Shown: positions 10,855-21,434, numbered from the stretch's first letter. The stretch: DNA of 31,580 nt from a virus (IMGVR_UViG_2700989363_000008:1-31580), one strand, 5' to 3'. A program made the numbers and translations. The notes: a model not told the origin generated them from the letters alone.

Positions 10855-10868
10855 CGTGACCAGTCACG
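10855..10868. repeat. Palindrome family 2 copy: CGTGACCAGTCACG
   Basis: Identical 14-mer also at 17509-17522 and, inverted, at 21371-21384. Confidence 0.7.
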
Positions 10869-11190
10869 CTTTGAGCGCAAGTTTCAGCCTCGTGGTTGTA
10901 AGGTGGCATGACCCTTCGCCATCAAAAATGCATTCTGAAACAGGCATTTTTTGACCACATCGCGGGCAAGTAGTAGATAGCTGCTTCTGCAGCTCCTTAT
11001 AGTTTTTCCTGATCAGCAAACCAATGACTTCGTTCTCCGAATATGGAACTCGCCCTGGTCTACGCAATACACAAATTTCCCCCAACATACGTAACTCGTC
11101 AGGTTCTAGAATCCACTCCCGTCTTGATGTGCCTTCCTTCTTCAACCGTTCCCTGCGTCTCCTTTGCCGTTCTGCCGGTGTCAGCGCCAT
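10864..11190 (-). CDS. Hypothetical protein (108 aa) with basic N-terminus and C-terminal Cys cluster (zinc-ribbon-like)
   Basis: ORF with SD CAGGAGGA; ...CPRCGQKMPVSECIFDGEGSCH.... Confidence 0.45.
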   Translation of the reverse strand: MALTPAERQRRRRERLKKEGTSRREWILEPDELRMLGEICVLRRPGRVPYSENEVIGLLIRKNYKELQKQLSTTCPRCGQKMPVSECIFDGEGSCHLTTTRLKLALKA

Positions 11191-11205
11191 AAATCCTCCT
11201 GAAAA

Positions 11206-11658
11206 TTACTTAACCCAATTAACTACACCGCCAGCGGCCACAACCGCCCTTTCACAGTCACGCTCATATCTCAAAGGTTGAAATACACCATCAATAAAAT
11301 ATTTATCTCCACCAAACGCTGCAGGAAGTGAAACAGAAAACTGAACATGACCATCCGGAGTTACCGGAGAGTTGCCAGCCTCATACGCCACACGCATCCA
11401 GTGCAGAAGCGTTTCAGTGCTCACACAGCCGCAATCAACATCAATTTTGCCGTGCTGCCGTTCCAGCCATTGCTCAAAAGTTAACTTGTAAGTTTGGCTT
11501 ACAGGTTCTGCACTATCAGCTTCGCGCCGCTTCTGTAGCTCTGCTGCCATCGCTCTCACGACTTCAACTGGTGCCCTTGCAGCAAACTCTATGTTGGTGA
11601 TCAGCTCATTAAGATATTGCTCGCCTGGATACTGTTTCTTATCGGTTATAGTGGTCAT
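11206..11658 (-). CDS. Hypothetical protein (~150 aa)
   Basis: Start at internal Met (MTTITDKKQYPGEQ...) preceded by AAGGAGAGTGAT-ATG, the same initiation cassette used by other genes in this operon. Confidence 0.5.
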   Translation of the reverse strand: MTTITDKKQYPGEQYLNELITNIEFAARAPVEVVRAMAAELQKRREADSAEPVSQTYKLTFEQWLERQHGKIDVDCGCVSTETLLHWMRVAYEAGNSPVTPDGHVQFSVSLPAAFGGDKYFIDGVFQPLRYERDCERAVVAAGGVVNWVK

Positions 11659-11659
11659 A

Positions 11660-12046
11660 TCACTCTCCTTTTCCCTGAAGCATAGCAGCGCGGCAGGCAT
11701 TCCAGCCTCTCACCTCTGCAATAGCGGCAACAGCATCAACCGCGTACATGCTAAGAGGATTAGGCATTGGTTTTTCTTCCGGTACTACTGGAACGGGTGG
11801 AGCGGCGTAGACCTCAATAATTCCATTATCAATAGGCCATTCTCCATCCTTGAGGTAGTCACTTGTGCCGTCAACTTGCTGTTCTGCAATGTGGAATGCA
11901 CCTATTGGTTTTGCTTCCAGCGATGCCAGAGCAATTCGTGCCAGTTCTTCCGCTTCTTCTGCTGGCAGTACAACGTTGCTACCAGGTCCGTATGTTTCGC
12001 GCCACTGTTTGATTGTCAGTAGTCGCTCTTTGGTAATAGTGGTCAT
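11660..12046 (-). CDS. Hypothetical protein (128 aa)
   Basis: ORF MTTITKERLLTIKQW... with SD AAGGAGT; N-terminus MTTIT shared with the downstream gene. Confidence 0.5.
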   Translation of the reverse strand: MTTITKERLLTIKQWRETYGPGSNVVLPAEEAEELARIALASLEAKPIGAFHIAEQQVDGTSDYLKDGEWPIDNGIIEVYAAPPVPVVPEEKPMPNPLSMYAVDAVAAIAEVRGWNACRAAMLQGKGE

Positions 12047-12056
12047 GTGTTACTCC

Positions 12057-19900: not shown

Positions 19901-20884
19901 TCACTGAAATTCTACTTCGATGGCGCTCGAGACAAAATTCGCCGTTATGAAACGATGCTGCTTGATGAAGTCACAGCCCGTCGTTATGACCGTGAAGAAG
20001 CGGCTATCAATTTTACATACGCATACCGCCAGACCGGACAGTGGCAATATTTTGTGGTGACCGCGATGACACGCGAGCAGGCTGATGATGTATTCAAAGC
20101 GAAATTTCCGGGAATAATCGACTACAAGGTAAAAGCCACCCCAGCTGTTGAGGTCGGCATGCGCGGATTCTATGCGCTTAAATCAGCAACTCTCAGGCAG
20201 TACTTTATCGACTGCGGTATCGACCCTGAAACTATGACCGGCGAAGCGACGCAGGAACGCCTTAAGTTCGCTCGAGATAATCTCATGACAGCAGAACGCC
20301 GTGATCTGTTGAATAACGTTCTGCGCATTGGTGGTTTTATGACACCAAAAGGGAAGCCTAAAGTGCCGGAAGCACTGTTTAAAAACATCTGCGACTCTCT
20401 CGGCCTAAAAACAGGAAAACGTCGCGGCAGAGATGGCGATAAGCGCCCGACATTGCGTTTTGTTGAGCCTGAGTCTGTAGCATTTATGCTTGATATTCTT
20501 GCGCAACGTCAGGAGGACGGTATGACGTTGAAAGCTCGCAAGGCGGAAAAATCAACGACCGAAGTGGATCGCGATTTGTCATTAAATATATATATGAATG
20601 GTGAAACGCGATCCACAAACACGGAGGAACAGGATCCTCCTCGTTCAGCTATATCACAGGCTTTAGCCGTATTGCCGGTGGCTGTTCCTGAGTCCTGGGC
20701 GATGAGTGCTCTGCCATCAGCTGAGCTGGAATCTATCAGGGGGTGGTCAGTTGACAGCATCGCATACACGTTTGCAGCCCTTTATATGACTGAGTTTATG
20801 GATTTGCTGTCCGGTCATGAGATTAAGTTGCTGAAGGCTTTTATAGGCCCACGACATGCCAGCGATGAGTTTTGTGCAGTTTAG
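16901..20884 (+). CDS. repA: Multifunctional replication protein RepA (primase-helicase, 1327 aa)
   Basis: TOPRIM-like acidic motif (ITCALDNDRKSATEGKG) and Walker A (GMGSGKST). Size and position next to cB match N15 RepA (~1324 aa) as recalled. Confidence 0.85.
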   Translation: MTLNDFYADRFGSDPFSLIEAARDELTELAQMAGINWPACSDNIQLNPRGGVERYSSYNKTSPEALEKSLKGRVEIYSRLEHSKGIDYPFINFVHKGSDAGSWSGFSFLFSEYRREQQRNNATVVAQPEEERERIERQAEARRRREEQKRINDLKNNQMDHERLLGWLAFHSAWEHAPAEDGSWPYAIKKGIRDVFSSCDVRRVTSHDSAKWSRGPTTYMAIPLAHLDGRYDGRIVGWQRIDKQGGKYQTSAVTSGDFVGACFVIGELKGAQNIAVTEGFATGASIWLATKKDKRFDAVVVAVSANNMVHVVEQLVNMYPAAKITCALDNDRKSATEGKGNTGLRTGYEILSKFNDVRCVYPTFEDDPQMECSDFNDLHKLRGLRETARQLFATANRLKTGTDLLSLTLNRLKTIKRDNRRTFAKELLRAVDIGMLTCPVPNSPSDLFNMFCIVLREMGLENIYRATVKDHIARRLNKKCRIAQAPRSFSESITDPNKRPQHITYKRFETSVMTDDVLKYVQSLQGIVIVRAGMGSGKSTGLLRPLMHSSERGISVAHRVSLIGGLWEMMTEGKGVKADILHYQDPGYQEMAPYASKLTICINSIVKNCWQPLMRQHDYFGFDEATQGLRAVLSGRAMENPVAVFNTLIDALARTEQHPIMVDADANDLLVDLAELAMKRREDLGLPAWLQIHVIELPVDVRNRETGEPIRVFYTEKDRIMTEVVKAVSDGEKIMLATDSSTFAEDVTATLRMHFPGKKFLCVNQKSKQDEEVDAFTNQPKVMVMKYDGLIYSPSISSGVSFEKKHFDRHFGMFCGEVVPSDAVQMLRRDRTAKEFIIGFDKARAKRETDPQKIERAFAQALLATAGMNGELTDVVFDGDRISMGVANTDFTRMKIKAAAIEASARNDYASNMICIMHSDGYKVSPLATDYAANDFGKELRKEARDIVWEQTLDLHLNTETPEESEREELLKKRALTLEEQAKLVRWDIENELKLPVEEGSLKFYFDGARDKIRRYETMLLDEVTARRYDREEAAINFTYAYRQTGQWQYFVVTAMTREQADDVFKAKFPGIIDYKVKATPAVEVGMRGFYALKSATLRQYFIDCGIDPETMTGEATQERLKFARDNLMTAERRDLLNNVLRIGGFMTPKGKPKVPEALFKNICDSLGLKTGKRRGRDGDKRPTLRFVEPESVAFMLDILAQRQEDGMTLKARKAEKSTTEVDRDLSLNIYMNGETRSTNTEEQDPPRSAISQALAVLPVAVPESWAMSALPSAELESIRGWSVDSIAYTFAALYMTEFMDLLSGHEIKLLKAFIGPRHASDEFCAV
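17263..17278. repeat. Palindrome family 1 copy (TGCGACCGTGGTCGCA) inside the repA coding sequence
   Basis: 16-bp perfect palindrome encoding NATVVAQ in RepA. Confidence 0.6.
17509..17522. repeat. Palindrome family 2 copy: CGTGACCAGTCACG inside repA
   Basis: Identical 14-mer to 10855-10868. Confidence 0.7.
20566..20614. other. Candidate replication origin element within the 3' end of repA
   Basis: Inverted repeat GGATCGCG...CGCGATCC (two GATC sites) flanking the AT-rich core ttaaatatatatatgaatgg; N15 ori is recalled to lie inside the 3' part of repA. Confidence 0.45.
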
Positions 20885-21018
20885 AGGATAGATGCATGGG
20901 AATGGTGCAAGAGTGCCTCGTTTTGATTGAAGGGTATGATCCGTATGTTGTTAACGTCAGCAGAATGGCTGATGCTAAAAAAGTTGATTGAGTTGTGATA
21001 ACTGTTACAGGAGATAAA

Positions 21019-21306
21019 GTGAAGAGTTTTATTTTGGTTTTATGTTTTGCCTTTTCTGCTGCGGTTTATGCCCAGGAAGATAGCATTTCTGTTATTAACT
21101 CATCAGCGGAGCTTGCATGTAAAAATAATCCCGATGCTGCATCAAAAGAATCATGCAAAGAACTGCTCCTTTCGACGGCTGCTTTTGCTTCTGAAAATGC
21201 GAAATTTTATTCAGCCTTCTGTCGCGGCTATGTTAAGGAAGAAGATAAAGAAAAATGTGATGATGCCGGTAAGTTAGTTAGGTATTTCCACTCTCTTAAT
21301 CCGTAA
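21019..21306 (+). CDS. Small secreted/periplasmic Cys-containing protein (~95 aa) with signal peptide
   Basis: GTG start with AGGAGA SD; N-terminus KSFILVLCFAFSAAVYA-QEDS is a signal peptide with an AxA-like cleavage site; four Cys in the mature part. Confidence 0.5.
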   Translation: MKSFILVLCFAFSAAVYAQEDSISVINSSAELACKNNPDAASKESCKELLLSTAAFASENAKFYSAFCRGYVKEEDKEKCDDAGKLVRYFHSLNP

Positions 21307-21370
21307 TGGCCTTTGATTAACGATCAACTTCTGATCACTCGTTCAAGCAAACTATAAAAACACCTGTCCC

Positions 21371-21384
21371 CGTGACTGGTCACG
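21371..21384. repeat. Palindrome family 2 copy (inverted): CGTGACTGGTCACG, extended to CCCCGTGAC-tg-GTCACGGGG (21368-21387)
   Basis: Reverse complement of the 14-mer at 10855 and 17509; here with 9-bp arms, at the head of the anti-immunity region. Confidence 0.7.
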
Positions 21385-21434
21385 GGGTAAAATGTCTTTG
21401 CAAATTATTGACGTGTGCGTCGTTTTGACGGTAA

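Follow-up and report, generated by a model that had tools for sequence, protein, structure and literature searches.

MatP, the Ter organiser of the host, occurs in Enterobacterales, Vibrio and Aeromonas. It is a ribbon-helix-helix (RHH) protein with a few dispersed sites that lie regardless of promoters. The 13-bp consensus of its site, matS, is GTGAC-RNY-GTCAC (PMC6907758). In phage N15, the published sites of the SopB protein (IR1-4) have the sequence GTGCGACC-NN-GGTCGCAC (PMC7205306). Here, another dyad-symmetric element, the 14-mer CGTGACCAGTCACG, is described in a 31,580-nt stretch of viral DNA (IMGVR_UViG_2700989363_000008:1-31580; 'the window' denotes this whole stretch), together with the protein that probably binds it, the predicted RHH product of the homologue of N15 gene 46 (gp46). 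By megablast and tblastn, the window belongs to the N15 group of linear phage-plasmids (genus Ravinvirus). It shares ~97% identity with Escherichia phage YDC107_1, is also close to PhiR46_1, and has ~76% identity to N15, to phiKO2 and to several relatives from Klebsiella and Enterobacter.

The gp46 system resembles MatP-matS in the predicted RHH fold of the protein, in the GTGAC...GTCAC dyad and in the use of few dispersed sites placed regardless of promoters. However, the centre of matS has 3 bp (RNY) and that of the phage site always 2 bp, a 3-bp centre being found in none of 12 phage sequences. The four-helix bundle and coiled coil of MatP are absent from gp46, which has a putative zinc-ribbon instead. 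In an hhalign comparison of the gp46-family profile with E. coli MatP, the sequence of which was checked against 4D8J, the probability was 0.3%, and the family gave no matches to PF06303 or PF17414. The likeness to MatP/matS is one of working and not of membership. The near-identity of the arms to matS raises a question of specificity and of possible cross-talk with the host Ter organiser. The dispersed IR1-4 sites of N15 SopB offer a second comparison: these and the present motif are dyads of 14-16 bp with a 2-bp centre, occur as single dispersed copies with one inside repA, and leave the same kind of conservation footprint in that gene. SopB is a ParB-type helix-turn-helix protein, whereas the proposed binder of the motif is a predicted RHH protein, and both the arms and the positions differ. 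In the window, the SopB centromere repeats (GCGACC-NN-GGTCGC) lie at five other positions (5705, 5925, 9027, 14821 and 17264), and the motif, with its CGTGAC arms, fails the SopB sequence; its separation from the sopC-like family, as claimed in a preliminary description of this DNA, is thus borne out.

The three identical copies of that description, one of them reversed, were all recovered, at 10855, 17509 and 21371 (Table 1), and the window holds no further exact copy. With up to two mismatches and both strands counted, seven matches were observed against a shuffle mean of 0.09, and chance is an unlikely source of the copies. The sequences around the copies show no relation to one another (18-35% identity over 60 nt), and the motif is therefore no part of a longer duplication. 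The 14-mer had been called a palindrome; it consists of 6-bp arms (CGTGAC/GTCACG) around a non-symmetric 2-bp centre (CA/TG) and is not a true one, so that 'inverted' describes the centre only. Site 1, thought to lie over the ribosome-binding site of gp47, is instead directly upstream of it (GAGGG) and contains the TGA stop codon of gp46 (10864-10866). The second copy does lie inside repA. Site 3 is situated after the repA operon, whose last stop codon ends at 21306, and before the immA leader. The 20-bp perfect palindrome reported there is hyphenated, with 9-bp arms around TG, and the arm extension is missing from N15 itself. Nor is the idea supported that site 3 heads a promoter: the -35 hexamer of the best Pa candidate is ~24 bp downstream of it. 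In terms of the genes that follow, site 1 precedes gp47 and the probable antC, a LexA-controlled AntA paralogue, and site 3 precedes the icd-antA-antB operon. Two other identities were considered and rejected. Site 3 is unlike a terminator in having no adjacent T-tract, an arm extension not conserved in N15 and a weak core hairpin, and the motif is no LexA box, the sole one of the window being at 10559-10574. A two-mismatch relative of the motif, CGTTACCAGTCGCG (9879-9892), lies within a HigB-like toxin gene and is kept in YDC107_1 and PhiR46_1; it lacks dyad symmetry, is absent from N15 and is probably a chance match rather than a copy.

In N15, exact 14-mers are found at 39268-39281 (the gene 46/47 junction), at 33236 (inside repA) and at 28549 (upstream of immA). 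The three homologous positions are also kept in phiKO2, PhiR46_1, 48ST307, KpLi5 and an Enterobacter phage, and indeed in every relative of the N15/phiKO2 group that was examined. Changes among these genomes are single substitutions at the outermost base only, and none has a fourth copy. The motif is thus neither set in identical flanks nor absent from related genomes, the two observations that the preliminary description had named as speaking against it. The N15 copies also lie outside the intergenic cB-cro and cB-repA operators (CB operators annotated at 34056-34094 and 34729-34793), which agrees with the earlier distinction between the motif and the cB/cro operators. Site 3 is kept in 17 distinct N15-like relatives, along with flanking ACTATAAAAAC and GGGTAAAAT blocks. 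An alignment of repA from seven genomes picked by RepA similarity (4 kb) has 58% invariant columns, and its longest invariant run, 19 nt, is CG-CGTGACCAGTCACG-ACA. The SopB centromere site at 17263, a validated cis element that serves as an internal positive control, is the third longest (15 nt). In PY54, an N15 relative with 49% RepA identity, the motif is absent even at two mismatches and RepA has a 4-aa insertion at the position of site 2. The protein can therefore do without these codons, and the constraint lies on the DNA. No gp46-family open reading frame (ORF) was found in PY54 even at E<=10. The copies of the motif are under strong constraint at the DNA level. The second-longest invariant run of repA, CATTTCGGCATGTTCTG (17 nt, 19328-19344), may be another cis-acting element, or may merely reflect strongly constrained codons.

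The motif is not confined to the N15 group. A scan of a viral contig collection for the exact 14-mer found it in at least 119 stretches. Among the matches listed, 46 had N15-like genes, most of the others had no tie to N15 or gp46, and in five loci without other N15 genes the motif was located at the 3' end of a gene for a distant relative of gp46. Four of these relatives share 34-40% identity with gp46, and the fifth was recognised only by profile search (E 1e-7). Three of the five loci belong to Mu-like phages, with the family gene upstream of gemA-mor, and in another the gene lies upstream of a terminator and the small terminase gene. The reading frame over the motif gives V-T-G-H codons in the Mu-like phages and, in a different frame, the TGA stop in N15, so that here too the constraint is on the DNA and not on the protein.

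An unbiased set was obtained by fetching family loci by protein similarity alone, which yielded 30 distinct loci (450 kb). It contains 44 exact GTGAC-NN-GTCAC sites against 0.4 in shuffled sequences. At least one site is present in 29 of the 30 loci, and 14 have two or more, kilobases apart. In 15 loci an exact site is found within 40 nt of the stop codon of the family gene, a number that rises to 19 if one mismatch is allowed, and the TGA stop usually forms part of a motif arm. The base preceding each arm did not enter the search pattern, and in 126 of 130 half-sites (65 unique sites) it is a pyrimidine. The consensus over these sites is YGTGAC-NN-GTCACR, with a centre that is always 2 bp and mostly AT or CA/TG. 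Sites of this motif co-occur with gp46-family genes across phage types. Two related arrangements were noted. Downstream of a family member of 43% identity (locus L170, 8350-8383) is a 36-bp palindrome, AACGTGTCCGGTCACG-AAGG-CGTGACCGGACACGTT, with two one-mismatch variants of the site, which may be a diverged or composite operator. A GC-rich viral contig (L083, 10585-10703) has six GTGAC-NN-GTCAC sequences in 120 bp, in pairs 17 bp apart that recur every 45 bp. The 416-aa ORF that contains them resembles a replication initiator by eye only, their layout is like that of origin iterons, and another system apparently uses the same dyad there.

The preliminary description had implied a further sequence-specific DNA-binding protein. 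The comparative evidence supports this, and the candidate it provides is gp46, the gene of which overlaps site 1. The gp46 family is small, amounting to 98 clusters at 50% identity in a set of 1.84 billion representatives, and its hosts are Enterobacterales, Vibrio and Aeromonas. It has no Pfam or NCBIfam model and is called hypothetical in all sources save PHROG 536, 'transcriptional regulator'. The protein appears to be built of a basic, arginine-rich N-terminal helix, a predicted RHH core and a Cys-rich C-terminal tail. The fold assignment of the core is reasonably supported. Matches to Pfam RHH_1 and RepB-RCR_reg are insignificant (E 0.03-0.07 in one or two of 55 family members); for PF10723 (IncFII CopB/RepB-RCR_reg), two of the 55 members match, with a best E of 0.028, short of the significance threshold. 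A Pantoea phage homologue is named 'RepB-like replication regulatory protein' in one GenBank record. Features common to gp46 and to Arc, Mnt, CopG, omega and IncFII CopB/RepB are the fold, which is predicted for gp46, the small size, the basic segment at the N-terminus and the dyad symmetry of the site. In contrast to these small RHH repressors, its sites are not at its own promoter and it has an extra Cys-rich domain.

The C-terminal half of the family points elsewhere. In hmmsearch against the PDB it gave E values of 0.011-0.013, with YbiI at 0.011 and TraR at 0.012, and the family profile aligned with F TraR in hhalign over 56 columns (probability 70%, E 3.9e-5). This alignment covers the CxxCG..P zinc-finger signature, which is the likeness to TraR/DksA. 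The differences are that only three of the four Cys positions coincide, the fourth being unaligned, that Pfam zf-dskA_traR (PF01258) finds no match in the gp46 family, and that the aligned helix is fused to the DNA-binding core. Foldseek found nothing significant in the PDB, and an AF2 model from a 10-sequence alignment (pLDDT 53) was too poor for use. The likeness to TraR, seen in alignment, is best regarded as a lead. Two distant members without the Cys-rich tail still carry sites, L118 with two in the 3' end of the gene and L107 with one ~190 bp upstream, which suggests that DNA is read by the N-terminal module. The product of gp47 was also considered as the binder and rejected, as outside the N15 group no homologue of it adjoins the motif. 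Taken on sequence comparison, gp46 is the probable binder of the 14-mer sites.

The position of the sites bears on what such binding might do. In epsilon15, the gp49 of which is annotated as 'similar to N15 gp46', GTGACATGTCAC occurs three times, always at the end of an operon. The site on the gp49 stop codon is followed by a terminator 34 nt on and that on the gp18 stop codon by one directly after it, while the third follows the large terminase gene and, when read on the opposite strand, precedes the terminator of a convergent gene by 4 nt. The late operons of epsilon15 (L171) each open with an annotated prophage-repressor operator, ATTACC-N5-GGTAAT (12-27, 2931-2947 and 19895-19911), and each GTGACATGTCAC lies 70-800 bp upstream of such an operator, closing the preceding operon. 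Overall, a terminator-like hairpin follows within 70 nt at 14 of the 41 unique sites, as against 1.8% of random positions. Other sites are in or before replication genes, namely N15 repA (0.6 kb into the gene), the transposase A gene of Mu-like phages and the initiator of a lambdoid prophage. In the last, a site ends a ydaT-like gene just upstream of the initiator, and another lies beyond cI. The sites are not placed as operators over promoters: they are found on a stop codon, inside repA or the Mu-like transposase gene and near terminators, and in sequences read by eye no promoter with a consistent -35/-10 geometry overlaps them across groups. A site upstream of the family gene was seen for the distant member L107 only.

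The order of family gene, site, terminator and terminase is found in epsilon15 and in L130, L140, L146 and L165-168; it is absent in N15 and the Mu-like phages, and the promoter geometry is inconsistent. This epsilon15-like and Yersinia layout, in which the last early gene is followed by the site, an intrinsic terminator and the terminase, is like that of lambda Q (binding element, PR' and tR'). One lambdoid type, with a site in each early operon, is similarly like lambda N/nut. Unlike lambda Q and N, however, gp46 has no sequence or fold relation to either, and there is no promoter of consistent geometry over its sites.

We lean, by a little, towards a reading in which the motif copies are the cognate double-stranded DNA sites of gp46 and the bound protein acts as a roadblock or operon-boundary element on transcribing RNA polymerase. 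The RHH core would grip the dyad YGTGAC-NN-GTCACR as a dimer. The early operon begins at cro and gp46 is its final conserved gene, so that the protein should accumulate only after the CB repressor is lifted. It would then occupy three sites, namely its own stop codon, a position 0.6 kb into repA and the region between the repA and immA operons. Few sites lie at promoters and many lie at operon boundaries or inside long genes, and our best guess is therefore that bound gp46 acts on polymerase that is already elongating and not at promoters. Such a roadblock would limit read-through into gp47/antC and immA and damp the expression of repA. The direction of the regulatory effect is speculative.

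Several points weigh against this reading. The assignment to gp46 is built on co-occurrence and a predicted fold. Among Aeromonas and Vibrio family members, there is no such motif and no alternative repeated or covarying palindrome. Site 1 overlaps the gp46 gene, so that the linkage is partly trivial and the independent evidence lies in the extra sites. The counted loci, including those scored for terminators, are not phylogenetically independent, and position at a gene end alone brings some proximity to terminators. A roadblock immediately before a terminator looks redundant, which favours antitermination instead. Finally, there is no obvious logic in blocking repA and the antirepressors during lytic growth.

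Antitermination by gp46 is, on balance, rather unlikely, but it is the main rival. Here gp46 would bind the same sites with the opposite output: the sites would be loading points at which it modifies passing polymerase, perhaps through its TraR/DksA-like zinc-ribbon, for read-through of downstream terminators, as a functional analogue of lambda Q/nut. In N15, transcription would continue beyond the immA terminator Ta to icd-antA, and beyond gp46 to gp47. The sites lie 0-60 nt upstream of intrinsic terminators in epsilon15 and in Yersinia and enterobacterial prophages, where the family gene stands in the place of Q as the last early gene before the site, terminator and terminase, and there is no Q-type Pfam family in L130 and none annotated in epsilon15. 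The lambdoid L141, with one site per early operon flanking cI in the manner of nutL/nutR, and the alignment of the C-terminal half with TraR point the same way. On the other hand, N15 has its own Q homologue, the epsilon15 late operons have their own repressor-controlled promoters, and 27 of the 41 sites are without a nearby terminator. As for TraR, zf-dskA_traR is unmatched, and the helix aligned to the channel-inserting helix of TraR is tied to the RHH core, which would preclude the same entry into the secondary channel. More tentative still is the wider proposal that the gp46 family is an unrecognised class of site-specific elongation regulators, in which an RHH anchor on sites at operon junctions is combined with a TraR/DksA-like zinc-ribbon that acts on the passing polymerase and toggles terminators. 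If true, it would supply the missing early-to-late switch of epsilon15-like and some lambdoid phages without Q, and would couple the lytic early operon of N15 to replication and to both antirepressor loci.

Explanations that leave gp46 out, or that move the signal from DNA to RNA, fit the same data less well. That a host factor, most obviously MatP, binds the sites for positioning or condensation, with gp46 as a bystander, is improbable: the arms are identical to those of matS and the gp46 family occurs in the same host groups as MatP, but all 65 unique sites have 2-bp spacing and a 3-bp centre was never seen in the phages examined. Moreover, the motif tracks gp46-family genes, PY54 having neither in a host that contains MatP, and it would be surprising for a host site to coincide with the stop codon of one particular gene in four types of phage. 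It is very improbable that the motif acts as an RNA hairpin in processing, stability or gp47 translation, perhaps recognised by gp46 through its N-terminus, which is rich in arginine. Site 1 and the corresponding Mu-like sites do lie 0-25 nt upstream of the next ribosome-binding site, and site 3 with its extended arms folds at -15.5 kcal/mol, yet the core forms a weak hairpin (5-bp stem, 4-nt loop; -3.6 kcal/mol) and the arms are invariant across phage types, with no covariation. In addition, site 2 is transcribed with its asymmetric centre in the opposite orientation, site 3 is upstream of Pa, and most other phages have a fully symmetric AT centre, as expected for a dimer on duplex DNA. Equally hard to credit is a role of site 2, or perhaps of all sites, in the replication origin or in RepA binding. 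N15 replication starts within repA (PMC2847241), and the six iteron-like copies of L083 are inside a replication-initiator-like ORF. Against this, the sites here are isolated single copies and not an iteron array, the repeats annotated in N15 repA are at the 3' end of the gene, away from site 2, and phages without RepA (Mu-like, epsilon15-like and lambdoid) also carry the motif.

The motif is unannotated in the GenBank records of N15, phiKO2 and epsilon15, which do carry operators, integration host factor (IHF) sites, partition sites and terminators. In the open-access literature, no paper was found with GTGACCAGTCAC or GTGACATGTCAC, and GTGACTGGTCAC occurred only in two unrelated mouse-cell papers, once in each; the main N15, phiKO2 and antC papers lie outside that search, and an earlier mention is possible. 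What appears to be new, judged from sequence comparison, is the unusual architecture and placement of a predicted RHH regulator with its dyad site, and the wide range of phage types in which the pair is found. Among linear phage-plasmids N15 serves as the model, and the pJAZZ cloning vectors are based on it; epsilon15 and the Mu-like phages are well studied too. If gp46 binds these sites, it would add a regulatory layer that joins the lytic early operon to repA, and thus to copy number, to the immA antirepressor operon and to gp47/antC, and it would form a regulator-site pair common to at least four phage types. The placement of the sites on the gene's own stop codon, in replication genes and before terminators is unusual for an RHH protein and raises the question of regulation of elongating polymerase.

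Table 1. Motif copies and neighbouring features of the window
Feature	Position	Strand	Remarks
Site 1	10855..10868	+	CGTGAC-CA-GTCACG; minus (sense) strand reads CG-TGA-CTGGTCACG
Site 2	17509..17522	+	Inside repA, 609 nt from the start codon; encodes R-V-T-S-H, RepA residues 203-207
Site 3	21368..21387		14-mer as reverse complement at 21371-21384; 9-bp arms, CCCCGTGAC-TG-GTCACGGGG; 20-bp hyphenated palindrome
gp46 homologue	10864..11190	-	108 aa; proposed binder; Cys-rich C-terminal tail, a putative zinc-ribbon
gp47 homologue	10603..10845	-	80 aa; first gene downstream of site 1; weak winged-helix-like matches
AntA paralogue, probable antC antirepressor	10317..10520	-	67 aa; PHROG 6301/10889; own promoter region with LexA box
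LexA box	10559-10574		CTGTATAAAATTACAG; only perfect CTGT-N8-ACAG within the window; in the 82-bp gap between gp47 and the 67-aa ORF
repA	16901..20884	+	1327 aa; holds site 2 and the SopB centromere site at 17264
immA leader	21408..21513	+	Pa candidate, then Ta-like terminator; downstream of site 3
Pa candidate promoter	21408-21437	+	TTGACG-18-TAAAGT; best Pa candidate
Ta-like intrinsic terminator	21496-21513	+	Homologous terminator annotated in N15 at 28413-28435
icd	21676-21849	+	After the Ta-like terminator
antA	21846-22079	+	After icd; split antB next

The genes around the motif copies form three blocks: a minus-strand early operon (cro-Q-...-gp46-gp47), the plus-strand cB and repA, and immA, the secondary immunity locus that holds icd, antA and antB. 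The LexA box and the 67-aa AntA paralogue fit the SOS-controlled antirepressor antC of N15, and the gene is probably antC; the homologous ORF was left unannotated in the N15 RefSeq record. The antB gene, encoding a BRO-N antirepressor, seems to be split in the window into 22076-22243 (55 aa) and 22328-22858 (176 aa) on the plus strand. In YDC107_1 it is a single intact gene of 777 bp, and the split may reflect a pseudogene or a sequencing error. The YDC107_1 record (L001, CP025712.1) itself contains a mirror-image duplication of the repA-immA-telN arm (~28000-36500 vs 36900-46300) with fragmented gene calls, probably due to an assembly that read through the hairpin telomere. The five motif matches in that record are explained by this duplication.

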